24,000 nt of DNA from Methanococcus voltae (GTDB taxonomy: Archaea; AGJL01; Methanococci; Methanococcales; Methanococcaceae), in the NCBI RefSeq assembly GCF_024807655.1, contig NZ_JANUCR010000004.1, forward strand, positions 117,282 to 141,281. The letters are read 5' to 3'. Position numbers and translations under genes: made by a program. The number at the start of each line of letters is the position of its first letter. Positions within the stretch are counted from its first letter, which is position 1. Positions 1,682 through 20,406 of this stretch are shown here, in pieces. The notes beneath the pieces are model-generated. The model had not been told where the DNA came from. It did not search any database and saw only the letters and a program-made list of their open reading frames with translations.

Positions 1682-3985
1682 TTACTTAATTTTATTATAT
1701 ATTTCAGATATTATCTTATATTCTTTTTCGTTTTTGTTATTATCATCATCTAACCAATTTTTAATATGAGTTTTAGGTAATCCATTTTTAAAGAATACAC
1801 ACATATTATCAAAATTTCGAGCATCTTCTGAAAGTATTTTTTTGTTATAATATCCATTATTCCTTATATCGTAATTTTGATTTACATATCTTATTATATA
1901 TTCGATAGTTAATTCTCGGGATAAGTTAGTAAATTTATTTTGTACTTTTGTACTATTAACCATTTGCAAGACTTCCATAATATAAACAATATCGTCATTA
2001 GTTGATAATTCGTAATCTTCTAAAATCTTAACAAATTTATTTTTTAAATTGTTCAATTGTGTGATTGATTCAGTGCTTATATTGGGCTGTTTAGTATGTA
2101 ATTTACAAATTAATTTTATAGTTACCTCATTAGGTAATGTATTTTTATCTTGATTATCTTGTAGATTATTATCTAAAATTGTATATAATGCGTTAAAGTT
2201 TATTTCAGATAATTTATAAACTGTATCTACAATCATTTTTGTTTTTAACGGATTTACATTATCGCAATATTTGGGATTTAGTAGTAATTCCATTAATCCA
2301 CGGTAATTGGGGGATGGTACATAATTAAGTTCTGAGCTATTATTTGCTAATTTTACAACGATATTTGAAAATGTATTTCCTTCATCAATGTTAATTTTAT
2401 TATCTTTTAATTCTTTATTTAATTTTTTAAAACTATTTAATGTATCTTTTGAAGATAATATATGTATAATATCTTCTTTTGGTTTCGTATAATGATTTAA
2501 TTTAAAATATTTACCCATATTTTTTATATTTAATATATCCTTAGATTCTCCAAAGTCATAAGTTCTAAATACGTAGTTTCGTTCCTGTAATAATAAATTC
2601 TTTGGAATTGTATTTTGTTCAATACTATTAGGAATTAAAATTCCCATAAAATTTTTTAAAATTTCTTTATATTCTTCATCTTCAACTTCAATTAGTAATT
2701 TATTTATTTTTTCCACGTATTCCTTATATTGTGGTACTTCATAATTTGATTGACTATTTTTTCTATTGTCCATATAATAAGTATATTCACTAATAAGTTT
2801 ATATATTTTAGAATAATTGTATTTAAGTATAGATAATCCTAAAAATTCAAATGGGTTAATTTCTTCTTTTACAATACCATATTCAAAAGAAAACATATTG
2901 TGTAATCTGTTAAAATCTCGTTGGTTTCGCAATGTTTTTAATATTTCAAATGAATAAATTAACTCTTCGTAGTCATATTGTTGTAATTCTTTATTATTTT
3001 CAATTATTTTTTCTAAAAAATCTCTTATTAATTCATTTTTTGAAAGTTCAGGGACAGAATATTCTACCTGAATTATTTTTTTAATATATTCGGCTCCTAA
3101 TTTATTATTAAGTATTCTTTTACGTCCTTCTTCTACATATTCATGTTCAGGACTACATTGTACATCAGCAAGAGCTTTGGACACTATTTTTTTATCATAA
3201 CCTAAAATATAAACGATATTTGGAAAGTCTGCTATACATTTAATTAATTTAAACATTAATTTGATTTGTTCGCCAGTTAATCTGTCCAAATCATCTATAA
3301 AAATAACTATTTTTTTATCTAATTCTTTTAAATAGTTAGATAATTTATCTCTTAATATAAAAATATCATGGTCTTCTGAACCATATTTTTTAAAATTTTC
3401 AAATTTTTCTTCATTTTCTTTACTTATATTTCTATAAACGTCATCGCCTGATAAAACACTCCATCCATTACCTACTAATTTTCCAAGTAAGTTTGTAATA
3501 AATCCCACATCTTCCAAAATAACCTTTTTATGATCTGATACTTTAATAATAGTTTGATACATTTTTTCAAAAAATGCAGATATCAACGAATATTCATTTT
3601 CAAAATACCATGGGTTAAAATCCATTGTCGTTATTTCGTTTTTAGCTTTTTCATTTTCTGAAAAAATTTTTTTCATTGCATTAAATATTGAAGTTTTACC
3701 ACAACCCCATTCGCCAGTCACTCCTATTACTGTACTATTGTCATCGTTTTCTATATTAATAATTGCATCAGCTAATAAATCTACTAATTTTTGACGTGAA
3801 ACGTGTAAATCTTCATATTTTTCTAATTCTCTATCTTTAGAGATTTTTATATAATCATTTTGTTCTTGCACTGCTAAATCATCTGAATTATTTAAATCAA
3901 TTTTATATCGAGAAAGTACCGAGGATGTGTTTTTTAATTTACGTCTTTTCGCACTTGAAATGATTGCGGAATTGTATGTGCCCAT
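1682..3985 (-). CDS. KAP-family P-loop NTPase, soluble variant (no transmembrane insert)
   Basis: Motifs are VIGVTGEWGCGKTS (aa ~86-99), then DFNPWYF, then the Walker B IVIFIDDLDRL (aa ~226-236), then FPNIVYILGYD. This order is the KAP NTPase signature as I know it. An AGGTGGT RBS lies 4 nt before the ATG. A ~400-aa helical C-terminal region is uncharacterised. Confidence 0.85.
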   Translation of the reverse strand: MGTYNSAIISSAKRRKLKNTSSVLSRYKIDLNNSDDLAVQEQNDYIKISKDRELEKYEDLHVSRQKLVDLLADAIINIENDDNSTVIGVTGEWGCGKTSIFNAMKKIFSENEKAKNEITTMDFNPWYFENEYSLISAFFEKMYQTIIKVSDHKKVILEDVGFITNLLGKLVGNGWSVLSGDDVYRNISKENEEKFENFKKYGSEDHDIFILRDKLSNYLKELDKKIVIFIDDLDRLTGEQIKLMFKLIKCIADFPNIVYILGYDKKIVSKALADVQCSPEHEYVEEGRKRILNNKLGAEYIKKIIQVEYSVPELSKNELIRDFLEKIIENNKELQQYDYEELIYSFEILKTLRNQRDFNRLHNMFSFEYGIVKEEINPFEFLGLSILKYNYSKIYKLISEYTYYMDNRKNSQSNYEVPQYKEYVEKINKLLIEVEDEEYKEILKNFMGILIPNSIEQNTIPKNLLLQERNYVFRTYDFGESKDILNIKNMGKYFKLNHYTKPKEDIIHILSSKDTLNSFKKLNKELKDNKINIDEGNTFSNIVVKLANNSSELNYVPSPNYRGLMELLLNPKYCDNVNPLKTKMIVDTVYKLSEINFNALYTILDNNLQDNQDKNTLPNEVTIKLICKLHTKQPNISTESITQLNNLKNKFVKILEDYELSTNDDIVYIMEVLQMVNSTKVQNKFTNLSRELTIEYIIRYVNQNYDIRNNGYYNKKILSEDARNFDNMCVFFKNGLPKTHIKNWLDDDNNKNEKEYKIISEIYNKIK

Positions 3986-4075
3986 TGTACCACCTTTTTA
4001 ACAATATAATTAGTTTATTATCTTATCTAATTAATTGTATAAAAATATGATATATTTCAAATTTAAAATATTTTA

Positions 4076-4103
4076 ATATCCTAATATCCGGTTTTTAGGA
4101 TAT
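4076..4103. promoter_or_regulatory. perfect 9-bp inverted repeat (ATATCCTAA-N10-TTAGGATAT) in a divergent promoter region
   Basis: ATATCCTAA at 4076-4084 and TTAGGATAT at 4095-4103. The repeat also contains the direct repeat AATATCC-T-AATATCC. It lies between a TATA-like element for the minus-strand KAP gene (~4038-4047) and a TTTATTTAAATA element (~4110-4121) upstream of the plus-strand cluster. Confidence 0.3.
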
Positions 4104-4171
4104 AAACCGTTTATTTAAATACTTTTTTCGAAATAACTCTTAATTAGAGCTTTAAGAGGTGATTACAATAA

Positions 4172-4435
4172 GTGATTATTAGATATTTAGTTAATAAATT
4201 GGCAGTTCCTATGGCTTCTGTATTGCTTATAATAGCTTCCGTTCTCGCACCTACGGCGTGGTATAGAGCCAAAGTAGCTGAATTTTTACAATCTTTCGGA
4301 TTGTTTATAGGTTGGTCGATAGATGAGGTCTGTGTTTTGCTCGTTGCCGTTTTAATGATTTTAGCATTTTTCATTTCTTACTCCCGCCCAACTGGTAAGA
4401 TTTGGAGGAAAAGGCCTAAAAGAAGACGTTATTAA
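4172..4435 (+). CDS. small membrane protein (2 TM, basic C-terminal tail), GTG start
   Basis: 87 aa. An AAGAGG RBS lies ~12 nt upstream of the GTG. Two hydrophobic helices are followed by WRKRPKRRRY. The overlapping antisense ORF (4144-4374) has no such features. Confidence 0.5.
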   Translation: MIIRYLVNKLAVPMASVLLIIASVLAPTAWYRAKVAEFLQSFGLFIGWSIDEVCVLLVAVLMILAFFISYSRPTGKIWRKRPKRRRY

Positions 4436-4539
4436 TTTTCATTATTTCATATTGCACCTAAACGGAAATAACCTAAAATAAATCTAAATTACTAAGATAA
4501 ACTAAAAATAAAACTAATTGGTACTTTAAGGAGGAAAAA

Positions 4540-4989
4540 ATGGGATATCCAAACAATAAATATAATAATTACAGGGGAGGTGGAGGCAGTTATAAACCTA
4601 AGGTAAATTCTTCAAGTTTTAGGTTCTTGGCTTACGTTGTAGGCTGTGGAATTGCTTTAGGAACTGTATTCTCCGACTTTTTAAGCGTGATACCTGCTGG
4701 ACTTGGTACGATTGTAGGCACACTTATTGAGGGTGTAGGCTATTTCGGGGTCGTCGTGTGCGGATTTATTTTATATGCAACCGCTAAAAGGAAAACTGCT
4801 ATGGATACGCTTTCTTTAGCTTGGCTTTTAGTATTTATAATTCCTTCATTACTAACCAAAGTAATGGCGTTCATACTAAGTTTTGTAGCTCCTGCAGTAG
4901 GTAGTGGCTCTGTTGACGTTATAGTCGGTGGAGTAATCTGTTTAATAACTTTGCTTGCTTTAAGCACGTTATATAATGAATTTGGCTAA
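4540..4989 (+). CDS. integral membrane protein (about 4 TM, Gly-rich helices)
   Basis: 149 aa. A strong AAGGAGG RBS lies 6 nt before the ATG. The N-terminus is polar (YRGGGGSYKPK) and is followed by four hydrophobic segments. Confidence 0.75.
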   Translation: MGYPNNKYNNYRGGGGSYKPKVNSSSFRFLAYVVGCGIALGTVFSDFLSVIPAGLGTIVGTLIEGVGYFGVVVCGFILYATAKRKTAMDTLSLAWLLVFIIPSLLTKVMAFILSFVAPAVGSGSVDVIVGGVICLITLLALSTLYNEFG

Positions 4990-5050
4990 TTGGATGTATT
5001 GCCCTCAATAAAACATATGAATATCAAATTTTAATTTACGAGGTGAATTA

Positions 5051-5410
5051 ATGGGTAATAAAATAGAATTGTTCCCTGTTGGAAAAATAAGCCCTGTGGA
5101 AGCGTTTGGAATTTTAGCCGGTGCTTTTACTCTTTACGATATCGTTTTTAATGCGATAATCTTTGAAAATATCTATTATTCAATAGGGGTTTACGCTTTA
5201 GCTTTCATAGCTGTAGCACTTAGTGATAAATTCGGGAAATTTAAGTCTAAAAGGTTAACAATTTACGAAATAATCGGTATGTTGATTTCTGCTTTTGTGA
5301 TAATCAATTACGGATTTTTACAACTCGATGTATTGAATGAATTTACAATTAAAGTCGTTGCTTGGGGTGCTTGTTTCATTACACTTGTAGCTATGGCAAA
5401 ATCGGATTAA
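5051..5410 (+). CDS. integral membrane protein (3-4 TM)
   Basis: 119 aa. A GAGGTGA RBS lies upstream. The protein is hydrophobic throughout. Confidence 0.7.
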   Translation: MGNKIELFPVGKISPVEAFGILAGAFTLYDIVFNAIIFENIYYSIGVYALAFIAVALSDKFGKFKSKRLTIYEIIGMLISAFVIINYGFLQLDVLNEFTIKVVAWGACFITLVAMAKSD

Positions 5411-5423
5411 ATGAGGTGGATAG

Positions 5424-6014
5424 ATGAAAAAAGGATTAATTCATTTAGCAATATTGATGATATTGACTGTTATTATAAGTCCTATTTCTGCTCATAATAT
5501 AACTCTGAACTCAAATGTTGATGAGTTTACTATTTATGACAATCAAACTGATTTGGGGATTTATAACGATTCTAACGTCATAAATTTGAATGGTACTAAA
5601 AATTTAACATTTATTAAATTAAATTATACAAATATAACTAAATTATTGAATATTAATGAAACAATGGTTATTAATTTAACATTCGTGCCCGTTGAAATTA
5701 TAAATGATACAAATAATACTGAAAATAATTCAAATGACGATTTAAATCAAACTATTAATAATAATACTCTTAATGATACAAATAATACTAATTTAGACAA
5801 TAGAACAATAATTTTAGTAAATTTAGACGATAATGATGATATAAGAGCTCAATTAGAAACTTTAATCAATGATAATTTAGGTATCGTAGTCGTTGGAGGA
5901 ATGGCCTTTATAATCGTTGGTATATGCCTTATTGGCGATAAGAGAAAGAAAAAACCAACATTTGATAATAAAGGATTTGGAAACAGTAACAATAATTACA
6001 GTAAAAAATGGTGA
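5424..6014 (+). CDS. secreted, C-terminally anchored protein with extreme N-glycosylation sequon density
   Basis: 196 aa. A GAGGTGG RBS lies upstream. The Sec-type signal peptide is MKKGLIHLAILMILTVIISPISA. I hand-counted about 17 N-x-S/T sequons in ~125 aa. The C-terminal TM segment GIVVVGGMAFIIVGICLIG is followed by KRKKK. Confidence 0.75.
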   Translation: MKKGLIHLAILMILTVIISPISAHNITLNSNVDEFTIYDNQTDLGIYNDSNVINLNGTKNLTFIKLNYTNITKLLNINETMVINLTFVPVEIINDTNNTENNSNDDLNQTINNNTLNDTNNTNLDNRTIILVNLDDNDDIRAQLETLINDNLGIVVVGGMAFIIVGICLIGDKRKKKPTFDNKGFGNSNNNYSKKW

Positions 6015-6020
6015 TAGATA

Positions 6021-7883
6021 ATGAAAAAACATTATTATCTATTCTTTTTATTTTTACTGATAACAATAAATTCAGCCTTTGCACAGACTGGTTATTATAT
6101 GGAATTTTCCGCAGATTATACGGAAGATATACTCCAACAAAAGTTTAATACCACTTGGCAAGGATACACTCCTCAAATAGAATCAATACAAGGTAATATC
6201 GTATATTTTCAAACTGAAAAAGATGTACTTAGAGCATTTGTGAATCCGTCATATTCAGCAGATAGTTTATTTGTTTCTAACGTAGATTTGTATATAAATA
6301 ACGAATTAACGGAATATACAATATATAAGATGACTTCACAAACAAGTAAAGATTTTAATTATACATCGTATTCACCTTGCGGAGCTTATTTATTTGGTTC
6401 TTCATATGGTAAATACCTCTATTCTGGTTCAAATGTATATTTGGACGGAGTCAGTTGCTGGGGTTCAACTTCGGGAACAGTCTATGGAGATTATAACGCT
6501 ATATTAACTAATGCTGGAACTGTATCCATAATTGCCAATTATGATTCAACACAACCGCCAAATTCTATAGTATGGTTAGTAGCAAAAGGTGCTGTAGATA
6601 TTCCTACAGCTAATCAAAGATTAGTTACACCATTACCGAGAGGTACTATAAAACTTATAGTAGACGACTGTAATTTAAAAATAGGCGGTAAAATACAATC
6701 TATAACTAATAATACAGAACTTTACGTACCTGTAGGAACTTATACTTTAGAATTCTCCAAAGCTGGCTTTTGGAATGAGTCAAGAACTTTAACAGTTATT
6801 GAAAATGAAACTATAAACTTAAATGTTGATTTATTCCCTGAATCATCGATATTTAAAATAAGTCAGTTAGACACCGTAAATACCTATCAAAATAATGAAT
6901 TTGTAGTTAAAATGAACGTAGCCCCTGTACAAGAGGTTACAAGCGTTAGACTTGAATTTCCAACAACAGAAGCAGTTTCTGTAAGAAAAGGAATCGAAGA
7001 AATAACTAAAAATAGCGATAATATATACCAATTAGGAACTATAGGAACAGAGGGAACCGAATTAACTTTAAGATTACCTGCAGGAGCTTTAACCGGTTCA
7101 AGATACATAAATATGAGAATAACCGGTGCAGATTATTCCGGAGAACTCTATGTACAAAATAAAATGATTAACTACAACGTACAAGAATTACCTATACAAG
7201 TTGATATACCAAGTTTAGTAGCTGGAAATAATAATATTAAAATAACTGATAAATCAGGTGGTGCTCAAAGACTTTCAATACTCCTAAAAGACGAAGATAC
7301 GAACGTATATTCAAAAGACTATGATTTAGGAGCTTACCAATCTATTAACTTTGATGTTGACTTAGAAGTTAAAGATTACATATTAACTATTTCTACAGAC
7401 AATTACGAAGCTAAGTATACACTTAATATTAAAAATGCTGTAATAGTGCCTACCAAGAGCTTTGAGATTTCGAAAGGAAGTGAATTAAGAGTCCCTTTAC
7501 AAATAACAAATCCTTACCCATTAACAAAATATTATACTGTAAAATTACAAGGAACTTCTGAAAGCTGTTTAACAAATAATACAGAATTAACTTATTCAAT
7601 AGCTCCACAAGAAACAAAAACGGTTTATGCAATAGCTAATTTAAAAGATAGTTTACAATACGATAGCTATTCAACAATAACTAAAGTAATATTAGATAAT
7701 GAAGAAATACATTCTGAAACTATAACTATAAATATAAAAACATCAGGATTTATCCCTATTATCGATGATGAAAACGGTATAAGTAGTAATACATTAATTA
7801 TCGGTGGAATCACCATTATTATATTAGGCGGTGGAATCCTTTATTTAAGAAGTAGAAAGAAAGGTAAAAAGGTGATAAAATGA
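6021..7883 (+). CDS. large surface protein: signal peptide, PEGA/CarboxypepD_reg-like beta domain, repeated beta-rich modules, C-terminal TM anchor
   Basis: 620 aa. The signal peptide is MKKHYYLFFLFLLITINSAFA. The segment GTIKLIVDD...VPVGTYTLEFSKAGFWNESRTLTVIENETINLNVDL matches the PEGA-like pattern. The C-terminal TM segment LIIGGITIIILGGGILYL is followed by RSRKKGKK. The stop overlaps the next start (ATGA at 7880-7883). Confidence 0.8.
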   Translation: MKKHYYLFFLFLLITINSAFAQTGYYMEFSADYTEDILQQKFNTTWQGYTPQIESIQGNIVYFQTEKDVLRAFVNPSYSADSLFVSNVDLYINNELTEYTIYKMTSQTSKDFNYTSYSPCGAYLFGSSYGKYLYSGSNVYLDGVSCWGSTSGTVYGDYNAILTNAGTVSIIANYDSTQPPNSIVWLVAKGAVDIPTANQRLVTPLPRGTIKLIVDDCNLKIGGKIQSITNNTELYVPVGTYTLEFSKAGFWNESRTLTVIENETINLNVDLFPESSIFKISQLDTVNTYQNNEFVVKMNVAPVQEVTSVRLEFPTTEAVSVRKGIEEITKNSDNIYQLGTIGTEGTELTLRLPAGALTGSRYINMRITGADYSGELYVQNKMINYNVQELPIQVDIPSLVAGNNNIKITDKSGGAQRLSILLKDEDTNVYSKDYDLGAYQSINFDVDLEVKDYILTISTDNYEAKYTLNIKNAVIVPTKSFEISKGSELRVPLQITNPYPLTKYYTVKLQGTSESCLTNNTELTYSIAPQETKTVYAIANLKDSLQYDSYSTITKVILDNEEIHSETITINIKTSGFIPIIDDENGISSNTLIIGGITIIILGGGILYLRSRKKGKKVIK

Positions 7884-9922
7884 AGCGATTAATAGCTTTA
7901 TTAACCTTATTACTTTTAGTTTCTCCAACGTATGCCGTAGATGTTAATAATCCTGTCGATTGGGTTTTAGCACCTATGAAATTTATTACGAATCCATTAT
8001 TTACTGTGACAGAATATGCAGTAGCTGGATTTTATGAGGCATATGACTATATGAACTCATTAGTATTTGGTGAAGATGTAGCATTAATGTTAAACAATAC
8101 TGTAGTTAATCAAACTCTTGAGGAAAAAAGAGACTTTAAAGAGTATGATTTTACAACAGATTCCAAACAACTTTTAGACCTTTTAAAAGAAAAAACAGCT
8201 TCTGAAATGGTTGTTTACACAGTCGATACTTCGGGAAATAATGATATAACTACAAGATTATATGCTCCCGATAAAATATATGGATACTCGGCTTTCCCAA
8301 CAAAATTATCAATTACAAAATGTACTGGGGATTCATTCCACGTAACAAATGTAAAAATATATGTTAAATCCAATAACAATAGTGAAATAAAATATTACTT
8401 ATTAGATAAAACCTATAATCAAACATTTAATCAATTAGAGAACGCTTATGATTCAGAATATGAAATCGAAGGTTCGGATACAGTGGATACAATAATGAAA
8501 GCTCCTGATACACATAGTGTACGAGTTAGAGACTTTACTGCAAATGCAAACGTTGATTACTCAGATATCGAAGAGATATTATCTTCAAATGTAGAACCAT
8601 TTGAAATATACTATGAAGTTCACGGACACATTGAAAAATGGGTCGAATATACTGTAACTGGTGATGATGGAGTTCAAAGAGAAGTTAGAAAGAGGCAAGA
8701 TATACAAGTAGACCATTTAGGAAATACTAATGGTTTAGATGGTAGAATCAAAAACGGAAACTATATGATAGGTTCATTTTCTAAAGGTTCATTACCTGTA
8801 GACTATTTAGAATCTGATGGAGATAAATTAATACCTTATGAATCCGTATGTCAAGGTTCTACAAGTAATATATTAAGCGTATTATGGAGTTCACCCGTAA
8901 ATGCAGTTAATAGAAGCCCTGATATGCGTTATGTATACATAGATAATTGCGGTGAATTATTTACACGTGCAGGAGTTCCCGCTAAAATTTACGACGATGT
9001 TGCAATTGTAACATTAAGAGAAACTACAAACCACGAAATAGAAATATCAAGTAAAAAAGCTATTCAAAAGGGTTATTTTACAAGCGTTGACCCTATCCAA
9101 ATTTACACAAGTTACACAGCTAATAACGAAGAAGATTTATTAGACTTTACAACTTACGGTATCGTTTACGGTGAAATAACAAGAACAGATGGCGTAAAAA
9201 TACCAGTATGGACGATTAATAAACCTACAATATTTGTTTACGGTTCAGAAAGAACTGTGGCAGGTCAAACTTTAGAAGAATTAGACGATTTACGTAGTCT
9301 TTCCGAGTGGGACGAATCGTCAAGAGAAAGAGTTTTAAATATATTAGTCTCTACAAATAATAGTTTAAATAACAAGATAGCAACAGCTGAAAACTATAAA
9401 GAAAAAGCAGAAATAGCGAGTTCTTCAAAAGCGATAGACTGTGCAGATAAAGCAATTGAAAATTATAAAGAAGGTACTGTATTACTTACAGAGCTTCACA
9501 ACAGCTTTATAAAACTTTACGAATCTACTGATTATAATAATGAAAATAAAATAGAAGAAGTAGATGATACTTTAGAAATCGTTAGAGTCTATGAGGTAGC
9601 AGGAGATGAATTCCTTAAGGCATCTAAACTTTATACTTATGGAAAAGATGAACAAGCAGAGCAAGTCGAAAAAGATGCTAAAGATTTGACTGAAAAATCA
9701 GCAGTACCAATATTTGGAAATGGCGGATTAATAGACAATACTAATCAATTTATAGAATGTTGGATTCTAAAGATACCTATAATAGGCGAATCACTTAATA
9801 ACTTAATAAAAAACATACCTTTTGGATATGTAACCTTAATAACCTTAGGATTAATAATTGTAATATATCAAAATAGAAGTTCTGTATCAAAAAGTTATAG
9901 ACGTTATAAAAGACGATATTAA
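7880..9922 (+). CDS. large surface protein: signal peptide, beta-rich ectodomain, ~190-aa helical stalk, C-terminal TM anchor
   Basis: 680 aa. The signal peptide is MKRLIALLTLLLLVSPTYA. A helical, charged region runs from ~aa 455 to 620. An amphipathic segment (FIECWILKIPIIGESL) precedes the TM segment YVTLITLGLIIVIY. The tail is SYRRYKRRY. Confidence 0.8.
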   Translation: MKRLIALLTLLLLVSPTYAVDVNNPVDWVLAPMKFITNPLFTVTEYAVAGFYEAYDYMNSLVFGEDVALMLNNTVVNQTLEEKRDFKEYDFTTDSKQLLDLLKEKTASEMVVYTVDTSGNNDITTRLYAPDKIYGYSAFPTKLSITKCTGDSFHVTNVKIYVKSNNNSEIKYYLLDKTYNQTFNQLENAYDSEYEIEGSDTVDTIMKAPDTHSVRVRDFTANANVDYSDIEEILSSNVEPFEIYYEVHGHIEKWVEYTVTGDDGVQREVRKRQDIQVDHLGNTNGLDGRIKNGNYMIGSFSKGSLPVDYLESDGDKLIPYESVCQGSTSNILSVLWSSPVNAVNRSPDMRYVYIDNCGELFTRAGVPAKIYDDVAIVTLRETTNHEIEISSKKAIQKGYFTSVDPIQIYTSYTANNEEDLLDFTTYGIVYGEITRTDGVKIPVWTINKPTIFVYGSERTVAGQTLEELDDLRSLSEWDESSRERVLNILVSTNNSLNNKIATAENYKEKAEIASSSKAIDCADKAIENYKEGTVLLTELHNSFIKLYESTDYNNENKIEEVDDTLEIVRVYEVAGDEFLKASKLYTYGKDEQAEQVEKDAKDLTEKSAVPIFGNGGLIDNTNQFIECWILKIPIIGESLNNLIKNIPFGYVTLITLGLIIVIYQNRSSVSKSYRRYKRRY

Positions 9923-9930
9923 CTTAAATA

Positions 9931-9941
9931 CTTTTTTTTTA
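9931..9941 (+). terminator. oligo-T tract after the membrane-protein cluster
   Basis: CTTTTTTTTTA lies 9 nt after the stop at 9922. Archaeal terminators are oligo-T runs. The tract overlaps the diverged 5' part of the terminal CRISPR repeat. Confidence 0.35.
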
Positions 9942-12581
9942 TTTTCCTTGTTTTAATGGATTATGCACTGTGACTGCTACGTCTAATTTAATATTCTTTT
10001 CTGTAGACATGTTTCAATCCTTGTTTTAATGGATTATGCACTGTGACACTTGCAGTATTAATCTGTCTAGGTTTCGAAAAACCAGTTTCAATCCTTGTTT
10101 TAATGGATTATGCACTGTGACCCTGTTGCCGTCCGTATTCTCCCAATTTAACAGATTGTTTCAATCCTTGTTTTAATGGATTATGCACTGTGACTTAAAT
10201 ACGGACTTTGCGGGGGTTATATACAATATAGGTTTCAATCCTTGTTTTAATGGATTATGCACTGTGACCATGTCTACTAAACCCCACTCTCTTTCAGTAT
10301 CTGAGTTTCAATCCTTGTTTTAATGGATTATGCACTGTGACTGATGGAGAAGTGACAGGATCTTCCTTCGAAGCATGTTTCAATCCTTGTTTTAATGGAT
10401 TATGCACTGTGACTTATACAAGATTTGCGGTGAAATTGAAATATTAATAACGTTTCAATCCTTGTTTTAATGGATTATGCACTGTGACTTTTAAATTATC
10501 TAAAAGTATTTCAGCTTGTTCCTTGCTGTTTCAATCCTTGTTTTAATGGATTATGCACTGTGACTACAGACATTGCTAAAAAAATATATCATTGTGATAA
10601 TAGGTTTCAATCCTTGTTTTAATGGATTATGCACTGTGACTTTTAACAACAAAAATGTTGTTAGTATCATTTAATTAGTTTCAATCCTTGTTTTAATGGA
10701 TTATGCACTGTGACAAACCATCTGAAGAGTTGCCAAATCATATATATATACAATCGTTTCAATCCTTGTTTTAATGGATTATGCACTGTGACATAGTAAT
10801 CAGCAAAAAGCTAAAGAATTGGAGAATATATGTTTCAATCCTTGTTTTAATGGATTATGCACTGTGACTGATGTACTTAGCTTGCTTTTCTGAGACTCTT
10901 ATCTGCAGTTTCAATCCTTGTTTTAATGGATTATGCACTGTGACAAAATTGTATTCAATTGTACAAAGAAATTTAGTAGGTTTCAATCCTTGTTTTAATG
11001 GATTATGCACTGTGACATGTGTATGTACCTAATCGATTAAGAGATGAACGTTTCAATCCTTGTTTTAATGGATTATGCACTGTGACAAAATCTTGTGGAA
11101 TGACTATTGATGATATTGCAGAGTTTCAATCCTTGTTTTAATGGATTATGCACTGTGACTATCATATTGATTGTATGCTGATGTATAATCAATATTACGT
11201 TTCAATCCTTGTTTTAATGGATTATGCACTGTGACTTTATCATACCCCCATACTTTTAACAAATAGGGTGTGTTTCAATCCTTGTTTTAATGGATTATGC
11301 ACTGTGACTTGTACGAGGCTCGTTAGTATCGGCTATAATGTTAGTTTCAATCCTTGTTTTAATGGATTATGCACTGTGACTAAAATAATAAAATATATTT
11401 CATAATACATTAACAAATTTTGTTTCAATCCTTGTTTTAATGGATTATGCACTGTGACCACAAGATAACAGTACAAAATTTAACGATAGTTTATTAAGTT
11501 TCAATCCTTGTTTTAATGGATTATGCACTGTGACATTTTATCCTCTTAGGTATATTGGGAATAGATATATGTTTCAATCCTTGTTTTAATGGATTATGCA
11601 CTGTGACTAAATATTTATTTAATTATTTAATAGAAATATTTATAGTTTCAATCCTTGTTTTAATGGATTATGCACTGTGACTGACCTTTTTAGATGAATA
11701 GTATTACAAAACAATAATTATGTTTCAATCCTTGTTTTAATGGATTATGCACTGTGACTTTTTTTCTAAAAGGACAGTTCAAAAAATTCTATGATAGTTT
11801 CAATCCTTGTTTTAATGGATTATGCACTGTGACAAAAAGGTCATATAGGATATATTGATGAATCTATATATTGTTTCAATCCTTGTTTTAATGGATTATG
11901 CACTGTGACATTCATATAATATAATTAGTTGAAAAACTAAATATTGAAGTTTCAATCCTTGTTTTAATGGATTATGCACTGTGACTCTTCTGTAAATCGT
12001 CTAACCGCGTGCTTACAGACGATGGTTTCAGTTTCAATCCTTGTTTTAATGGATTATGCACTGTGACACAGATGACGAACCGTACGGACACGGTGCAAAA
12101 AGTGCAAGTTTCAATCCTTGTTTTAATGGATTATGCACTGTGACTTTATTTTATTATGTTGTTTTTAAGTCAACATAAGTTTCAATCCTTGTTTTAATGG
12201 ATTATGCACTGTGACTAAATGGCGTAAAACTATTCATATAAAAGATATTTAGTTTCAATCCTTGTTTTAATGGATTATGCACTGTGACGTTCAGGTTTAC
12301 CCCTTAACCCATCAATTACTTGTCGGTTTCAATCCTTGTTTTAATGGATTATGCACTGTGACCCATATTGTACAAGAACAAAGTTATTATCAAGAAGAGT
12401 TTCAATCCTTGTTTTAATGGATTATGCACTGTGACTAGTGTCGCTATCGGTGCCAGTACACTTATTGCCAGGTTTCAATCCTTGTTTTAATGGATTATGC
12501 ACTGTGACTATTGATATGTTTGAACCACATATCAACGAATTATGGTTTCAATCCTTGTTTTAATGGATTATGCACTGTGAC
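9938..12581 (-). CRISPR. CRISPR array, 36 repeats (35 identical 37-nt repeats plus 1 degenerate terminal repeat) and 35 unique spacers of 33-45 nt
   Basis: The plus-strand repeat is GTTTCAATCCTTGTTTTAATGGATTATGCACTGTGAC. Hand-indexed repeat starts are 9938 (degenerate: TTTATTTTCCTTG...), 10011, 10085, 10158, 10232, 10305, 10377, 10452, 10528, 10604, 10678, 10756, 10832, 10908, 10980, 11050, 11123, 11199, 11272, 11344, 11422, 11498, 11571, 11645, 11722, 11797, 11873, 11949, 12031, 12108, 12179, 12252, 12326, 12399, 12472 and 12545. The reverse complement ends in ATTGAAAC, the source of the typical 8-nt Cas6 5' handle, and the degenerate repeat is at the low-coordinate end. The leader is therefore on the 12582 side and transcription is on the minus strand. 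Confidence 0.97.
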
Positions 12582-13040
12582 ACGTAGTTAAATTATTACT
12601 CACCAATAAGCATTTAAAACAGCTTATAGATTAAACAAAGCTCTATTTAGCCGTATCGCAAAAATAATGTAATTCAGCAATATATAGTTTGTTTCAGACC
12701 CTATATAAAAGTTACCATTTGTATTTTAAAATTATAATTCGGGGTTAGTTGAATATATAAAAAGTAACTCTTTTAATAAATACAAAATAACTAAGAACTA
12801 ATAATCAAACCATACAGAATGAATTGAGCATATAACTAATAGAATAGATTAAACAAATCTCATAGTATCTACTAAATTTTTTAACTCTAAAAAAAGAAGC
12901 TCAGAACGGGCTTAATAATTTTGGATTTTGAAATGCGTTATTACAAAGGTCACGTAAAAATCATACTAAGTATTACTCTACATAATCTCAACGTTTATTT
13001 TTTAAAAAAATATATAAAATCCCTTAAAATATCGTTAAAA
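12582..13040 (-). promoter_or_regulatory. CRISPR leader with two promoter-like GTWAC-TTTTTATATA elements
   Basis: This AT-rich region has no ORFs. Minus-strand TTTATATA boxes lie at 12702-12709 (preceded by GGTAAC) and 12754-12761 (preceded by GAGTTAC). The proximal box is ~120 nt upstream of the first repeat. The 18-mer ATAGATTAAACAAAKCTC occurs twice, starting at 12626 and 12844. Confidence 0.4.
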
Positions 13041-13045
13041 TATAT

Positions 13046-13071
13046 AAAAAGGACAAAACATTGGTTTTGTC
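13046..13071 (-). terminator. hairpin plus T-run terminator downstream of the TPR gene
   Basis: On the minus strand, GACAAAAC-CAAT-GTTTTGTC (a perfect 8-bp stem at 13052-13071) is followed by CTTTTT. It lies ~50 nt after the stop at 13119. Confidence 0.5.
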
Positions 13072-13118
13072 AGTTGTGAAAAATAAAATAGTAAACAATT
13101 AGGGTAAATATTCAGTGG

Positions 13119-15653
13119 TTATCTATAATTAATTAGTGAATCATTAACCGTCACTCCTTTTCTATTCAAATAAATTTCCCATCTATTTTTATTTACAAGT
13201 TTTGGCCCCATTGTTACCTTCTCAATATATTTATCATATTTATTATTTTCATCATTTAGGCTTTTTTCTATATCTATATACATTCGTTCTGGGAATTCTT
13301 CATATTCATTAAATTCTTTCAGAACATGGAATTGTATAGATTCATCATCCGTGGGTAAGGTAACTAAAACTCTCATTTCACGCTCTTCTTTATAATCTGA
13401 CGATTTTATTAAATAGCTAACGTCATTTAGTATGGAAATTATCATATCAGTTACTCTTTCTTTTTCAATTTTGGACGTTAATTCTTCGTAAATTTTATAT
13501 ATTTTTTTTAATTCTATATCGATTTGGTAAGTAAACTCTTCTAATTCACGTAACTTTTCTAGTTCTTTAATATATCGTTTAATATCCTTATATTTTTCAT
13601 ATTTTTTTAAGTTATCAATGATAGTTTTTAGCTCGTTTTGACGGTTTTGATGATCCTTAAAATCTCTAGAAAGACAATCATTTAATTCTTTTTTAGATAT
13701 ATAACTTACATCATATAAATTATAATATATTTTACGTTCTTTTTCAAAATGGGTTAATTCCAAAGGATTTTTGGATTTATTAATATTATCATAACTTTGG
13801 GAATTTACAAATGAGGTATTTAATTCGTCTAAGGATTTATCCATTAATTTCATAGGTTCTAATTGGGGGTCTAACTCATTATCAAAGAAATTTTCTTTAA
13901 AAACTATATTAAGTCCTCCAGCTTCTTCATCGTTATCATTTTTACCATAAGTCCTCCATAAATATAATCTGTCAGTATCGGGTAAAAAACTACCTATAAA
14001 TGTTGTTTGAATACTATATCCGTCATTATTTTTATTAAATAATTCTTTATACTGTTTTTTACATAATTCATTTACTAATAATTTTCCCTCTTCAGGATCG
14101 TTCATATATTTTGCATTATATAATCTAAGGTAAGATTTAGTAAAATTATTCCCTTTATTTTTTTCTTCTTCAAAGTCTTTTTCTGGTACAATTAAGGATT
14201 TAACTGTTGATGGTTTGGTATAATGAACTATTAAATTATTATTAGTTGACTGGTTTTTAGAATTTTTATTATTGATATTAATAGTTTTAATTTGTTTATT
14301 TTTAAAGTCGTTTACTTTTTCCGCAAGACTTATGGTACTTTCTATAAGTTCATTTGTGATTTTTAAATTTTTTAAATTTTTGAGGTAATAATTATTAATA
14401 TATCTTGACATATTTTTTTTATATTTTATATTTTTAGATTCGTTATAATCTTGATTCGATTTTTCAATTTGATCTAATTTATCATATCCAATACTTCTAT
14501 TGAGATATACCTCATAATTATTTTTATCTAACGCAACTGCTCGATTAAGGTCTTCTATTGCTTTCGTTTTATTATTTAGTGTTAGATAAATAAAGCTTCT
14601 ATTATTATAACCCATAGGATTTTTTGGATTTATTTTTATTGCATTATTGAAATCTTCCATGGCATTATCATATTGTTTTAGCTCACTGTACACTATTCCT
14701 CGATTAATATATGCGTCATAATTATTATTATCCAAGTTTATGGCTATATTGTAATCTTTTAATGCTTTATCATATTTTTTAAATATTTTATGCAATGTAC
14801 CTCTTTCAAAATATGATTTTGAATTATTTTGAATATTGATAATATAATTATTGTCTTTTAATGCTTTATCATATTCTCTTAACTCAACATAGATATTTCT
14901 TCTATTTATCAGTGCTTTAACGTTTTTATTATCTAATTCCAAAGCTTTGTTTAAGTAGAATAATGCTTTATCATATTTTTTTAACATTTTATATAATGTT
15001 CCGAGATTATATTTTGTATTGGAATCATTTTTCAACTCATCTGCTTTTTGGAAATCTTCCATGGCATTATTATACTTTTTTAGTTCGCCATATAAGCACC
15101 CCCTATTTTCATAGGCATCAGTATTAGTATAATCTATATTGAGAGCATTATTGAAATCTTCCATGGCATTATTATACATTTTTAATTTGGTGTATATAAG
15201 ACCCCTATTTGAATAAGATTTGGAATCTTTTCTTATACTAATGGCAGTTGTAAAATCATCAATGGCTTTATCGTACTTTTTTAGCTCACTATATATTATT
15301 CCCCTATTGAGATATACATCAGTATATTTAGAATTTAACGATAATGCCATATCGTAATCTTTTAATGCTTCACTATATTTTTTAAGTATTTTATATAACG
15401 TACCTCTATTAAAATACAACTTTGGATCATTATTTTTTAACATAATAGCAGTTGTAAAATCATTGATGGCATTATCATATTGTTTTAGCTCACTATATAC
15501 TATTCCCCTATTAGTATAAAAGTCAGGATTTTTATTTTGAAACTCTTCAATTTTATTTAATTTATCTAAAGCTTCAACATATTTGTGATTCTTTAATAAA
15601 TTGTTAATTTCATAAGGTAATTTACCATATTTTTTAGATACTCTTTTACTCAT
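13119..15653 (-). CDS. TPR-repeat protein (about 11 TPRs) with C-terminal DUF2971-like domain carrying a coiled-coil insert
   Basis: 844 aa. A GGTG RBS lies 7 nt before the ATG. Residues ~10-405 are 34-aa TPR units (recurring Y.NRG..Y..LK.YD.A..DF..A). From aa ~474 the motifs are LIVHYTKPSTVKSLI, LRLYNAKYMNDPEEG, FIGSFLPDTDRLYLWRTYG...GGLNIVF, EEREMRVLV and KVTMGPK. This matches my memory of the Pfam DUF2971 pattern. There is no P-loop. Confidence 0.85.
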   Translation of the reverse strand: MSKRVSKKYGKLPYEINNLLKNHKYVEALDKLNKIEEFQNKNPDFYTNRGIVYSELKQYDNAINDFTTAIMLKNNDPKLYFNRGTLYKILKKYSEALKDYDMALSLNSKYTDVYLNRGIIYSELKKYDKAIDDFTTAISIRKDSKSYSNRGLIYTKLKMYNNAMEDFNNALNIDYTNTDAYENRGCLYGELKKYNNAMEDFQKADELKNDSNTKYNLGTLYKMLKKYDKALFYLNKALELDNKNVKALINRRNIYVELREYDKALKDNNYIINIQNNSKSYFERGTLHKIFKKYDKALKDYNIAINLDNNNYDAYINRGIVYSELKQYDNAMEDFNNAIKINPKNPMGYNNRSFIYLTLNNKTKAIEDLNRAVALDKNNYEVYLNRSIGYDKLDQIEKSNQDYNESKNIKYKKNMSRYINNYYLKNLKNLKITNELIESTISLAEKVNDFKNKQIKTININNKNSKNQSTNNNLIVHYTKPSTVKSLIVPEKDFEEEKNKGNNFTKSYLRLYNAKYMNDPEEGKLLVNELCKKQYKELFNKNNDGYSIQTTFIGSFLPDTDRLYLWRTYGKNDNDEEAGGLNIVFKENFFDNELDPQLEPMKLMDKSLDELNTSFVNSQSYDNINKSKNPLELTHFEKERKIYYNLYDVSYISKKELNDCLSRDFKDHQNRQNELKTIIDNLKKYEKYKDIKRYIKELEKLRELEEFTYQIDIELKKIYKIYEELTSKIEKERVTDMIISILNDVSYLIKSSDYKEEREMRVLVTLPTDDESIQFHVLKEFNEYEEFPERMYIDIEKSLNDENNKYDKYIEKVTMGPKLVNKNRWEIYLNRKGVTVNDSLINYR

Positions 15654-15876: not shown

Positions 15877-18660
15877 ATGGTGGACGATATGGAAGTTGAA
15901 AGCGAATCGCAACTTGAAAATAAATTTATTAAACAATTAGTTAATCAAGGTTATTCAAGAATTAAAATAGAAGATGAAAAAGACTTAGAAAATAATTTTA
16001 GAGAACAATTATATTTACACAATAAAGAAAAATTAGATAATATTCCATTTAGTGATTATGAATTTAACAAGATCATGACTCAGTTATCTGGCAAAAGCAT
16101 ATTTGAAAGTGCTAAAATACTTCGAGATAAATGCATATTAGAGCGTGATGAGGGCAATACTCCTAAAAAAGTATATCTTGAATTTATCGATAGTAATAAC
16201 TTAAATAACAATATATTTCAAGTAACTAATCAAATTACGATGAAAGGAAAGTATGAAAATCGTTATGACGTTACCTTATTAATAAATGGCTTGCCTTTGA
16301 TACAAGTCGAATTAAAAAAGGCAGGTGTCGATATAAAAGAAGCTTTTAATCAAGTTATGAGGTATAGGAAGCATTCTTATAAAGGTCTTTTTAGATACAT
16401 ACAAATTTTTGTAATTGGAAGTAATAAAAATGTTAAGTATTTTGCAAACCGTGATGGGGAAATTTTATTTAATAGTGCTTTCTTCTGGGCTAATGTAGAT
16501 AATAAGCGTATAACTAACTTGGATGAATTTGCAGATAACTTTTTAGAAAAAAATCGTATTGCTAAAATTATTTCCGAATATATGATTATTAACGAGTCGG
16601 ATAAAAATCTAATGGTTATGAGACCTTATCAGATTTATGCGGTTGAATCCATTTTAGACCGTGCCATAAATACGAATAGTAACGGATACGTTTGGCATAC
16701 GACGGGCAGTGGTAAAACACTTACATCTTTTAAAGCAAGTCAATTATTAGCGAATAATCCCAAAATTGACCGGGTTTTCTTTTTAGTTGATAGAAAAGAT
16801 TTGGATGCACAAACAATAAAGGAATTTAATAAATTTGAAAAGGATTCTGTAGATGATACGGATAATACTAAAAATTTAGTTAAGCAAATTCAAGAAATTG
16901 ATAGAAAATTAATAGTTACTACAATTCAAAAAATGAGTATAGCCATTAAATCTGAAAAATATGCTGAAATAATGGACAAATACAAAGATGATAAAGTAAT
17001 ATTCATAATAGATGAATGTCATAGGTCTCAATTTGGTGAAATGCACAGGGTTATAAAAAAGCATTTCGTTAACGCTCAATATTTTGGATTTACAGGTACA
17101 CCAATCTTTAAGGAAAATAAAGGGGCTAAAGACATGGTCACTGCCGATTTGTTTAAAAAATGTTTACATACATATCTTATAAAAGATGCAATTAGGGACG
17201 GTAACGTATTGGGATTCCTTATTCAGTATTTTAAAACTTTTGAAGGTAACTATGATAAAAATGATGATACAAAAATTTATAAAATAAATAAAAAAGAGCT
17301 TTGGAGTACAGACGAACGTATATCCCTAATTTGTAATGACATTGTTAAAAATCATAACTTAAAAACACGTGATAAAGAATACTGTTCTATATTTGCGGTG
17401 GATAGTATTCCATCACTTATAAAGTACTATAATAAATTTAAAGAGTTTGACCACGATTTAAAAATAGCCGGAATTTATACTTATGAAGCTAATGAGGCCA
17501 GTGCGGGCATAAATGCAGAGCATTCTCGGGATATTTTAGAACGAATAATCAGCGATTATAATAAAATTTATAATACGAATTATTCAACAGATACATTTTC
17601 AAATTATTTCATAGATATTTCTAAAAGATTAAAAAATGGCCAAATTGATATTTTACTTGTCGTAAATATGTTTTTAACAGGTTTTGACAGTAAATTATTG
17701 AATACAATTTATATCGATAAAGATATGAAATATCACAATTTAATACAGGCTTTTTCAAGAACTAATAGGGTATATTCTGCGAATAAACCACATGGTAATG
17801 TAGTATGTTATAGAAATTTGAGAGAGAAAACTGAAAATGCTATTCGTTTATTTTCTCAAACGGATGATGTAGATACTGTACTTATGGAAAGCTACGAATT
17901 TTATTTGGATAAATTTAAAGAACGCTTAGAAAAATTACATAATATCGCAAATACGCCTGACGATGTAGATTTGATAGAAGGTGAATCAAAAACTTCCGAA
18001 TTTGTTATGGCATTTAAAAATTTGACTAAGGTACTTGTTACGATGAAGAATTTTGTAGAATTCGAATTTGAAGAGGATAAACTTGGCATTGATGAACAAA
18101 CATATCAGGAGTATAAAACTAAATACCTTATGGTCTATGATGATGTAACTAGAGGTGAATACGAAGGTACATCAGTTCTTAAAGACATAGATTTTAGTAT
18201 TGAGTTAATGTATACCGATAAAATAAATGTGGATTATATTCTCAATCTTTTAAAGAATTTGGATATAGATAATACCAAAAATAGAGATAAAGAAATAAAA
18301 GATATCGTCGATAAGTTGAAAAAGGCAGATAATGAAGAATTAAGATTAAAAGTAGAATTAATACAGGAATTTTTAGAAAAAGAAGTCCCAAAAATTATCG
18401 AATTAAATAATCAGGATGATATTGAATCATTATATTATGAATTTGAAGATAAAAAAAGAACAGAAGAAGTTGAAGAATTTGCAAAAGAAAATAATATCGA
18501 TACTACCAAATTATGGAGCTATGTGGAAGAATATGATTACTCGAAAACTTTGGATAAAAAAGCCGTAGGCGATAGTATTTCAGCTCCATTTTTGAAGAAA
18601 AAGAGAATTATCAATAAAGTTAGCGAATTTATACAATATCAGGCTAAAAAATACGCTTAA
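15877..18660 (+). CDS. hsdR: type I restriction enzyme R subunit (EcoR124-like / type IC pattern)
   Basis: The N-terminal PD-(D/E)xK nuclease motif is YDVTLLINGLPLIQVELKK. Helicase motifs are WHTTGSGKTLT, IIDECHRSQFG, FTGTPIF and LTGFDSKLLNTIYIDKDMKYHNLIQAFSRTNR. The real start may be the ATG at 15889, because GGTGGA lies 4 nt upstream of it. Confidence 0.92.
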   Translation: MVDDMEVESESQLENKFIKQLVNQGYSRIKIEDEKDLENNFREQLYLHNKEKLDNIPFSDYEFNKIMTQLSGKSIFESAKILRDKCILERDEGNTPKKVYLEFIDSNNLNNNIFQVTNQITMKGKYENRYDVTLLINGLPLIQVELKKAGVDIKEAFNQVMRYRKHSYKGLFRYIQIFVIGSNKNVKYFANRDGEILFNSAFFWANVDNKRITNLDEFADNFLEKNRIAKIISEYMIINESDKNLMVMRPYQIYAVESILDRAINTNSNGYVWHTTGSGKTLTSFKASQLLANNPKIDRVFFLVDRKDLDAQTIKEFNKFEKDSVDDTDNTKNLVKQIQEIDRKLIVTTIQKMSIAIKSEKYAEIMDKYKDDKVIFIIDECHRSQFGEMHRVIKKHFVNAQYFGFTGTPIFKENKGAKDMVTADLFKKCLHTYLIKDAIRDGNVLGFLIQYFKTFEGNYDKNDDTKIYKINKKELWSTDERISLICNDIVKNHNLKTRDKEYCSIFAVDSIPSLIKYYNKFKEFDHDLKIAGIYTYEANEASAGINAEHSRDILERIISDYNKIYNTNYSTDTFSNYFIDISKRLKNGQIDILLVVNMFLTGFDSKLLNTIYIDKDMKYHNLIQAFSRTNRVYSANKPHGNVVCYRNLREKTENAIRLFSQTDDVDTVLMESYEFYLDKFKERLEKLHNIANTPDDVDLIEGESKTSEFVMAFKNLTKVLVTMKNFVEFEFEEDKLGIDEQTYQEYKTKYLMVYDDVTRGEYEGTSVLKDIDFSIELMYTDKINVDYILNLLKNLDIDNTKNRDKEIKDIVDKLKKADNEELRLKVELIQEFLEKEVPKIIELNNQDDIESLYYEFEDKKRTEEVEEFAKENNIDTTKLWSYVEEYDYSKTLDKKAVGDSISAPFLKKKRIINKVSEFIQYQAKKYA

Positions 18661-18706
18661 ATACACTAAATACACTAAATACACTAAATACACTAAATAT
18701 ACTTAA
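18651..18706. repeat. 9-bp tandem repeat ATACACTAA x4, flanked by two degenerate 10-bp copies
   Basis: The sequence reads ATACGCTTAA, then ATACACTAA four times (18661-18696), then ATATACTTAA. The first degenerate copy contains the hsdR stop codon. Confidence 0.9.
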
Positions 18707-18838
18707 AATATTTAATTAACTATTACTTTTTTAAATTTAATTAAATGATAAATTAAAATATAGGTAAAGATAATTACGTAATAGATTAATAATATTATAA
18801 TGATAATTTAATAAAATAATAATATATTAAGGGTAATT

Positions 18839-20383: not shown

Positions 20384-20395
20384 ATTAAATAAATA

Positions 20396-20406
20396 TTTTT
20401 ATTTTT
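20396..20406 (+). terminator. T5-A-T5 tract between convergent hsdM and hsdS
   Basis: TTTTTATTTTT lies within the 21-nt gap between the hsdM stop (20383) and the hsdS stop (20405). Confidence 0.35.

Follow-up and report, generated by a model that had tools for sequence, protein, structure and literature searches.

Six membrane and surface genes at the end of an integrated element

We analysed a stretch of 24,000 nucleotides (nt) of Methanococcus voltae DNA (contig NZ_JANUCR010000004.1, positions 117,282 to 141,281; hereafter the window, in whose numbering coordinates are given unless another locus is named), in which six co-oriented genes were found on the + strand between positions 4172 and 9922. 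These genes form a conserved membrane and cell-surface module, which is located at the 3' end of an integrated Methanococcus mobile element. The element, of roughly 17-19 kb, appears to be conserved and separate from the canonical elements of the pT26-2 plasmid family, and the last two genes of the module are, as judged by their homology, diverged orthologues of the t26-5p and t26-6p genes (5p and 6p) of this family.

The module begins with three genes for small membrane proteins. The first one (4172-4435) has a GTG start and encodes a protein of 87 amino acids (aa) with two transmembrane (TM) helices and a basic tail, RRRY; it is followed by the genes for a 149-aa polytopic protein with a Gly-rich N-terminus (4540-4989) and for a 119-aa polytopic protein (5051-5410), both with about 3-4 TM segments according to their hydropathy. 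Syntenic orthologues of the 87-aa protein and orthologues of the 119-aa protein were present in all the related loci. The three remaining products are type-I membrane proteins, each one with a signal peptide, a C-terminal TM anchor and a basic tail. The 196-aa protein (5424-6014) contains a short PEGA-related ectodomain and an Asn-rich linker with 18 sequons, the 620-aa t26-5p homologue (6021-7883) has an all-beta ectodomain with a PEGA domain, and the 680-aa T26-6p homologue (7880-9922) combines two T26-6p immunoglobulin (Ig)-like domains with a helical domain and ends in KRRY.

An earlier note on this DNA had proposed the same six open reading frames (ORFs), with gaps of 13 and 6 nt and one ATGA overlap, and all of them were recovered at those coordinates and with that spacing. 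There is a further gap of 61 nt between positions 4989 and 5051, and a Shine-Dalgarno-like motif (GGTG or GGAGG) was found 5-13 nt ahead of each one of the six starts. The topology given in that note (small multi-TM proteins, type-I proteins of 620 and 680 aa, and products ending in RRRY and KRRY) agreed with the hydropathy profiles; for the 196-aa protein, the signal peptide and the richness in sequons (18 N-x-S/T) stood, and the C-terminal TM anchor had been overlooked. The cluster had also seemed richer in G+C than its neighbours. This excess exists but is modest and uneven: G+C amounts to 30.9% in the cluster, 27.7% in the whole window and 27.5% in the part of the element that lies upstream, and it is the small TM genes (33-38%) that account for most of the difference, the 196-aa gene having only 24%. 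A sigma-70 promoter scan was also run; it is not meaningful for an archaeon.

The six ORFs appear to be genes and not chance ORFs, because all of them have syntenic orthologues in other genomes. The public annotation of sister strains differs for the first one, where a 76-aa antisense ORF (4144-4374, - strand) is called in place of the 87-aa ORF. Counts of synonymous and non-synonymous substitutions were uninformative in this case, because the third codon positions of both frames coincide. The + strand ORF has TM helices, a Shine-Dalgarno-like motif and syntenic orthologues in every related element, and for the - strand ORF we found neither TM helices nor such a motif nor syntenic orthologues outside M. 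voltae. Synteny and TM content favour the + strand ORF, and the 76-aa call of the public annotations probably results from an error of strand.

In order to describe the whole element, related contexts were recovered through homologues of the 6p protein and of a P-loop protein encoded upstream of the module, and the left part of the window's own copy was deduced from the sister M. voltae strain L008. The left end of the conserved layout carries a gene of ~180-214 aa together with a gene for a XerC/D-like tyrosine integrase, and then one or two genes on the - strand, including a divergent MarR-type winged helix-turn-helix (wHTH) regulator. Next comes a + strand operon of ~20 mostly orphan genes, among them the one for a conserved 418-452-aa protein with a zinc ribbon, which ends with the genes for a 410-489-aa protein with an N-terminal TM region, an 82-aa protein, a 169-193-aa P-loop protein and the six-gene module.

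Three of these upstream core genes are visible in the window, all of them on the + strand. Positions 12-926 encode the C-terminal 304 aa of a ~410-aa TM/coiled-coil protein, with N-terminal TM helices, which is cut by the window edge; this product shares 96.7% identity with residues 107-410 of its 410-aa counterpart in the M. voltae locus L003, and every related locus has an orthologue, with lengths of 455-489 aa (the coiled-coil content was judged by eye and is unscored). The 82-aa core protein (883-1131) is 100% identical in L003 and has orthologues in all the related loci. The 185-aa minimal P-loop, AAA+-like protein (1124-1681), which showed sub-threshold matches to Pfam AAA families, had been pointed out in the earlier note as an upstream neighbour of the cluster, and it belongs to the same element.

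The layout was found in three M. voltae strains, in M. maripaludis OS7 and HNP86 and in one further genome, as well as in at least 18 metagenome contigs, one of them or more from a hydrothermal-vent sample, some of these copies being partial. The gene order from the integrase to 6p was the same in M. voltae (L008), OS7 (L009) and HNP86 (L021), and the flanks varied by host: PolD/YbjQ genes in OS7, HMD/V4R genes in L010 and an array of clustered regularly interspaced short palindromic repeats (CRISPR) in M. voltae. A comparison of related genomes had been proposed in order to see whether the cluster is present as a unit and accompanied by an integrase, and in fact it travels with the integrase, in different chromosomal contexts. 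The L008 enzyme belongs to the Phage_integrase family, and the integrases of the element are 36% identical across species. When the genome collection was scanned with the 680-aa protein nothing was retrieved, and the scan with the 6p alignment retrieved one locus only, which was a canonical element.

Iterative searches revealed orthologues of the 87-, 149-, 119- and 196-aa proteins, of the TM/coiled-coil protein and of the 82-aa protein in every related locus and in none of the canonical loci. The three small polytopic proteins and the short PEGA-type type-I protein thus seem to be specific to this element lineage.

At the right end, an oligo-T tract follows the last gene (9923-9945, + strand) and marks the right limit of homology with L003 and with a further M. 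voltae locus, L001. Taken from the T run itself, this tract is the probable terminator of the operon and, as far as visible, the right end of the element. A 14-nt repeat, TTAAATACTTTTTT, brackets the six genes exactly (4115-4128 and 9924-9937); it was not significant, because 11 of 100 shuffled sequences gave at least two matches, and it is probably a T-rich terminator-like motif.

Some copies carry additional genes. In HNP86, a PAPS-reductase-like gene lies inside the element (L021, 5633-6412) and a protein with ArdC-N, MPTase-PolyVal and methyltransferase domains is encoded just past the 6p gene (L021, 17721-19775); in metagenome copies, a 710-aa Hel308-like helicase is encoded upstream of the conserved 418-aa gene (L017, 2372-4504). 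The OS7 copy occupies ~28-45 kb of AP011528.1 and is probably different from the catalogued MmaOS7_IP1, because the latter most likely lies at ~451-476 kb (by analogy with the sister strain KA1, its printed coordinates being apparently a typing error).

Two core genes of the pT26-2 family with other partners

The pT26-2 family of Thermococcales and Methanococcales is defined by seven core proteins, of which t26-5p and t26-6p are the largest two (PMC2926602, PMC6972569). Two of the others, the TM/coiled-coil 13p and the ATPase 14p, were proposed to pump DNA together (Soler 2010, PMC2926602), and the core as a whole was proposed to be a DNA or protein transfer system, which might have been kept by selection as a single unit (Badel 2019, PMC6972569).

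The 680-aa product is, by its matches, a clear T26-6p homologue: all three T26-6p domains of Pfam were detected above their cut-offs (PF22092, 1.2e-19; PF22265, 2.3e-16; PF20984, 1.5e-09), and residues 101-602 matched the PT26-6P structure (PDB 2WB7) with E=3e-29. A protein of M. voltae was found with 100% identity to this product. The 620-aa product, in turn, seems clearly assignable as a t26-5p homologue, since phmmer matched it to t26-5p of pT26-2 (5.5e-38) and to the PEGA protein of pMEFER01 (1e-41); its Pfam PEGA match (4.1e-05) was also above the cut-off. The 196-aa protein resembled the PEGA region of the 5p proteins in both sequence and iterative searches.

Among the pT26-2 proteins, 5p and 6p were the only ones that phmmer detected in the window, L001, L003 and L004. 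No match to t26-7p was obtained in these loci at E<=1, nor did the ORFs of L008, L009 and L010, used as queries, find the 7p ORF of the Methanothermococcus Ax23 element (L011). The same two sets of searches gave no match for t26-11p and t26-15p, and none at the sequence level for t26-13p, whose place is taken by the analogous TM/coiled-coil protein encoded at 12-926, in a similar position and with homology undetected. The t26-14p ATPase (~430-450 aa, HerA/VirB4-like by Phyre2) matched the 185-aa protein, which is less than half its size, in the P-loop region only; the match to t26-14p or to pMEFER01 spanned 34-41 residues at the P-loop alone, with E~1e-4. As a positive control, phmmer found 5p, 6p, 7p, 8p, 11p, 13p, 14p and 15p in order in L011 (7p, 3e-28; 11p, 1.5e-23; 15p, 6.8e-27), and the reverse search of the L008, L009 and L010 proteins against L011 yielded, beyond 5p and 6p, only the wHTH regulator and two marginal matches. 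On these grounds the element appears to share the 5p-6p pair, and no other core gene, with the pT26-2 plasmids.

The likeness to the family (pT26-2, pGE2, pMEFER01, TKV2/3, MVV1 and MMPV1) goes beyond the pair itself. In both cases the 5p-like and 6p-like genes are adjacent, in the same order and with a stop/start overlap, genes for small membrane proteins lie just upstream, a TM/coiled-coil gene shortly precedes a P-loop gene, and the elements are integrated, encode a tyrosine recombinase and reside in the same host order. In contrast with the canonical members, the element described here is devoid of t26-7p, 8p, 11p, 13p, 14p and 15p, five of the seven defining genes being among these, and it has the 185-aa P-loop protein in place of the ~430-450-aa t26-14p. 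Its integrase is also different, with 20% identity to that of pMEFER01 over the catalytic core, and no tRNA gene was seen beside it in the loci covered; the Methanococcales branch of pT26-2 uses a Type II integrase and inserts at tRNA genes (Ser or Leu), and the window and L001-L003 contain none. Finally, the 5p-6p pair lies at the end of the operon, whereas the canonical pair precedes 7p-15p. In canonical Methanococcales elements, the small proteins encoded ahead of 5p are soluble and rich in Cys. A relationship between the 119-aa protein and t26-4p, also of 119 aa, was considered and discarded, the alignments showing no relation.

Loci bearing only this pair have appeared in the literature: one sentence of Soler 2010 (PMC2926602) mentions 5p and 6p homologues in M. 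maripaludis genomes without other core genes, and Badel 2019 (PMC6972569) lists MmaC5_IP1 as a "remnant" with two core genes and undetectable limits. Such loci are probably the same kind of element, as OS7 and HNP86 share the gene order of the window; the difference is that they have been treated as remnants, and MmaC5_IP1 is known here by its description only. What is new in our results is that the 5p/6p-only loci appear to be complete, conserved, integrase-bearing elements with a core of their own, extending to M. voltae and to vent metagenomes, and they should not be dismissed as decayed remnants. No described Methanococcus virus or element of this type was found in our literature searches.

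In a rough neighbour-joining tree, the 6p proteins of this lineage formed a clade, 20-28% identical to the canonical proteins, which fell outside the canonical members of the two orders altogether. The 5p tree was less clear, the OS7 protein having no resolved position. Because of the position of the 6p clade, the 5p-6p pair of this element seems to have been separate for a long time and not to have been captured recently. The whole 6p family is tiny: in a set of 1.84 billion representative proteins, it amounts to 30 clusters at 50% identity, and its named members that were looked up were all from Methanococcus.

This distribution bears on whether the cluster could be an ordinary island of cellular glycoprotein genes, S-layer-associated or otherwise of the envelope and unrelated to a mobile element, as the earlier note had suggested for a strain-specific case. 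Signal peptides, sequons and C-terminal anchors are features of archaeal surface proteins in general, and the PEGA domain is common in proteins of the cell envelope. However, the homologues present on the free plasmids pT26-2, pGE2 and pMEFER01, the invariable linkage of the cluster with the integrase and regulator genes, which contradicts the strain-specific island, and the small size and narrow membership of the 6p family all but exclude this explanation. The other half of that suggestion, an integrated virus, vesicle-forming or plasmid-like element, proved right in kind, given the 5p/6p homology, the linkage to the integrase, wHTH and P-loop genes and the varied contexts; for its virus-specific part, no homology was found.

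This element shows the pT26-2 core unit to be divisible: its 5p-6p pair occurs with a different integrase, a P-loop protein of smaller size and three small membrane proteins that are not those of pT26-2. From this entirely different set of partners, 5p-6p would appear to be a sub-module of its own, for the surface or for recognition. The M. voltae PS element (L012) has the canonical layout, judged by its gene sizes, and hence canonical and atypical elements both exist within one species, M. voltae, which offers a comparative experiment. We consider the value of the locus to be that of a well-delimited lead rather than of a discovery.

Proposed role of the module

The comparison of M. voltae strains showed that the different parts of the element diverge very unequally. 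Nucleotides 1-1705 were 97% identical to L003 and nucleotides 4000-5431 were 93-96% identical to L001 and L003, and between strains the three ectodomain genes, as well as a gene for a KAP-family NTPase inserted upstream of the module, had about 68-75% nucleotide identity, with sharp boundaries; for the ectodomain genes by themselves, the values were about 68-72%. At the protein level, the small TM proteins were 93-99% identical across the strains (149-aa, 97%; 119-aa, 98-99%), and the identity was 29-48% for the 196-aa protein, 52-54% for the 620-aa protein and 62-65% for the 680-aa protein. Within the type-I proteins, the membrane-distal blocks were 20-45% identical and the anchors and tails 78-98%, the variable distal domains corresponding to residues ~81-240 in the 620-aa protein and 1-80 in the 680-aa protein; in the 196-aa protein, the corresponding values were 20-38% for the ectodomain and 78-98% for the anchor and tail. 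Such a pattern would be expected of exposed specificity determinants exchanged by recombination, and it suggests that the outer domains set specificity, because the near-invariant membrane parts contrast with strongly diverged outer domains.

The structure of the 620-aa protein was modelled with AlphaFold2, with a mean predicted local distance difference test (pLDDT) score of 75, as a string of about six beta-sandwich domains with the TM helix as the last element. The AlphaFold2 model of the P-loop protein (pLDDT 85; predicted template-modelling score, pTM, 0.81) had as its nearest structures AAA+ proteins (Rix7, DnaA and RFC), picornavirus 2C and the N-terminal domain of Zot, with TM-scores of ~0.4, and the family profile matched nothing in PDB below E=0.29. 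Homologues of this protein are 50-57% identical in M. maripaludis and in metagenomes. Their Walker B motif (LFLDDFG) is invariant; in about half of them (P0010, P0011 and L001 among these) the Walker A motif reads G-x-R-G-[ST]-[FY]-K-T-T and not G-x-R-G-M-G-K-T-T.

We think it fairly probable that the module is the recognition and membrane part of the dissemination apparatus of the element. The three type-I proteins would be exported by means of their signal peptides, held by their C-terminal anchors and probably N-glycosylated, so that they could project beyond the S-layer and touch the recipient cell, where their fast-varying membrane-distal domains would set the specificity of the contact. 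The nearly invariant small polytopic proteins would provide the membrane platform, and the upstream TM/coiled-coil and P-loop proteins may handle DNA, as proposed for t26-13p and t26-14p. In this manner the module would serve the spread of the element from cell to cell, the vehicle being either a membrane-bounded particle or direct cell contact. Among systems for direct contact, the conjugative adhesin PrgB of pCF10 offers a parallel, as a mobile-element-encoded, membrane- or wall-anchored protein with strings of Ig-like domains, which appeared at rank 43 of the fold matches; this match is generic (TM-score ~0.14) and without homology, and the element, unlike pCF10, has no type IV secretion genes. 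Pfam domains of a conjugative VirB4/TraG/FtsK-HerA translocase or of a relaxase were absent from the proteins of the window and L008 (for L008, ten further proteins were scanned and the rest taken from precomputed results).

Several points weigh against a role in dissemination. The roles of 5p and 6p are still proposals in every element that carries them. Neither att sites nor an excised form were found, none of the loci searched for att sites (L008, L009, L010, L014 and L021) spanning both ends of the element, and there is no tRNA gene in the window or L001-L003. None of the 71 CRISPR spacers of two adjacent arrays targets the element; only short chance matches were obtained when they were compared with all the loci recovered. 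The Foldseek matches of the 620-aa model in PDB and in a viral fold library were generic arrays of multiple Ig or macroglobulin domains, with TM-scores of ~0.15, which would fit any adhesin; likewise, the structural neighbours of the P-loop protein are weak and generic for the AAA+/ASCE class. The ATPase activity of this protein is itself uncertain, because F or Y replaces the glycine that precedes the Walker A lysine in about half of the homologues, and nucleotide binding may be altered in these deviant copies. Moreover, the element carries or adjoins defence genes and might be retained for the benefit of the host rather than for transfer.

If the vehicle is a particle, the module could encode its envelope. 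Pleolipoviruses and the vesicle-spread plasmid pR1SE of haloarchaea are small double-stranded DNA elements, able to integrate, in which a single operon encodes small polytopic proteins, spikes that are type-I glycoproteins, and a small NTPase. The element follows the same general gene logic, and the earlier note had made the analogy with pleolipoviruses on this basis: its products include small multi-TM proteins, a 185-aa P-loop protein and type-I glycoproteins whose basic tails are short. According to this explanation, the element would be a temperate, capsid-less, enveloped virus of the pleolipovirus kind, or else a plasmid spread in specialised membrane vesicles; the small polytopic proteins would be envelope or matrix proteins, the 196-, 620- and 680-aa proteins would be spikes for both binding to and fusion with new hosts, and the P-loop protein would play the role of the pleolipovirus NTPase. 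The layout resembles that of a temperate virus, with a single long operon besides the integrase and the divergent wHTH regulator in roughly 17-19 kb, there is no large HerA/VirB4/FtsK-type translocase, unlike in canonical pT26-2, and the receptor-distal domains vary strongly between strains.

The homology expected from such an analogy, to the conserved pleolipovirus proteins (a VP3-like membrane protein, a VP4-like spike and a VP8-like NTPase), was not found, however. PHROGs gave no significant match, the 680-aa and P-loop proteins had no tblastn match in 50,697 phage and virus records, and IMG/VR gave none either. A fold comparison of the 620-aa ectodomain with viral spike or fusion proteins, which the earlier note had called for, returned only the Ig-like and macroglobulin-like matches mentioned above and no viral spike or fusion protein. 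The element thus differs from pleolipoviruses and pR1SE in having no detectable sequence or fold similarity to them and in belonging to another host lineage, and it is known here from its genes alone. Its known relatives are described as plasmids, with no report of particles in the available text of the two sources (PMC2926602, PMC6972569).

On balance, we consider the particle envelope possible but rather unlikely. A little less likely still is that Methanococcales harbour, in this element, a new family either of temperate viruses with an envelope and no capsid or of plasmids carried by vesicles. The receptor-binding and fusion spikes of such a family would be the 5p-like, 6p-like and 196-aa proteins, and the three small polytopic proteins would build its envelope. 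If such a family did exist, the 5p-6p pair of the whole pT26-2 family would be concerned with host recognition and entry, as a function separable from DNA translocation by 7p-15p.

Defence cargo and the variable right flank

The KAP-family NTPase mentioned above is encoded between the P-loop gene and the membrane module (1682-3985, - strand). It is PifA-like (Pfam KAP_NTPase, 1.3e-39; PADLOC PifA, 1.6e-50) and corresponds to a defence-type cargo, which occurs in this site in the M. voltae elements only and is missing from the M. maripaludis and metagenome versions. It had been taken as a border of the cluster, but it sits inside the element. The alleles of L001 and L003 are in the same position and have 35-40% identity, their flanks being 93-97% identical, which suggests that the gene is a defence cassette that travels with the element and can be exchanged.

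On the other side, the module is adjoined by a CRISPR array on the - strand (9938-12581), a neighbour outside the module, with 36 repeats of 37 nt and a leader at about 12582-13100. Transcription was assigned to the - strand from the repeat, whose reverse complement ends in ATTGAAAC, and the degenerate terminal repeat beside the stop codon of the 680-aa gene is for this reason the trailer end, in agreement with the side on which the trailer had been placed before. No cas genes were found in the 24-kb window. At the corresponding position, L001 has no array and instead contains a pair of genes for 409-aa and 520-aa (AAA_15/AAA_21) proteins (L001, 12210-14995); guanylate-cyclase/PycTM (Pycsar-like) genes are located further on, at 19717-21998. 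Because of this replacement, the right flank of the element appears to be a variable defence island across strains.

These surroundings raise another explanation, in which the element would be domesticated and no longer mobile, and its surface proteins would serve the host as adhesins, in cell-cell recognition or in masking receptors against viruses and plasmids, alongside the PifA-like gene. According to Badel 2019 (PMC6972569), pT26-2 core modules persist in integrated copies without replication functions, and deletion of TKV2 or TKV3 slows growth. The PifA-like KAP NTPase carried by the element, the CRISPR array, a type I restriction-modification system and the AAA_15/21 and Pycsar-like genes of L001 would suit a host-serving function, as would the 620-aa fold matches, which are adhesin-like domain arrays. 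Nevertheless, the integrase, the regulator and the whole operon are intact and syntenic across species, in different chromosomal sites, which argues for recent mobility, and the sharp mosaic boundaries argue for ongoing recombination between circulating elements. We regard this explanation as quite improbable, less so than an ordinary cellular island and more so than a particle envelope, and keep dissemination as the preferred role of the module.

Some additional features of the flank were observed. L003 shares the junction, with the 6p stop codon, the oligo-T tract and a truncated repeat, TCCTTGTTTTAATGGATTAT; its array (L003, 12165-15119) has its true start ~280 bp beyond this point, preceded by a 92-nt duplication. 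The arrays of the window and L003 had no spacer in common, even at the trailer end, despite adjacent element DNA that is up to 97% identical.

Beside the CRISPR leader, an 844-aa protein is encoded on the - strand (13119-15653), with about 11 tetratricopeptide repeats (TPRs) in its N-terminal half and an unassigned C-terminal half of ~440 aa, and L001 and L003 have related TPR proteins in the equivalent location. The restriction-modification system is a complete type I system (15877-21652): hsdR (927 aa) and hsdM (514 aa) are encoded on the + strand, and hsdS (415 aa) converges on them from the - strand. Three orphan genes on the - strand (231, 112 and 161 aa; 22064-23768), which had no match in Pfam, may belong to another mobile element or defence island.

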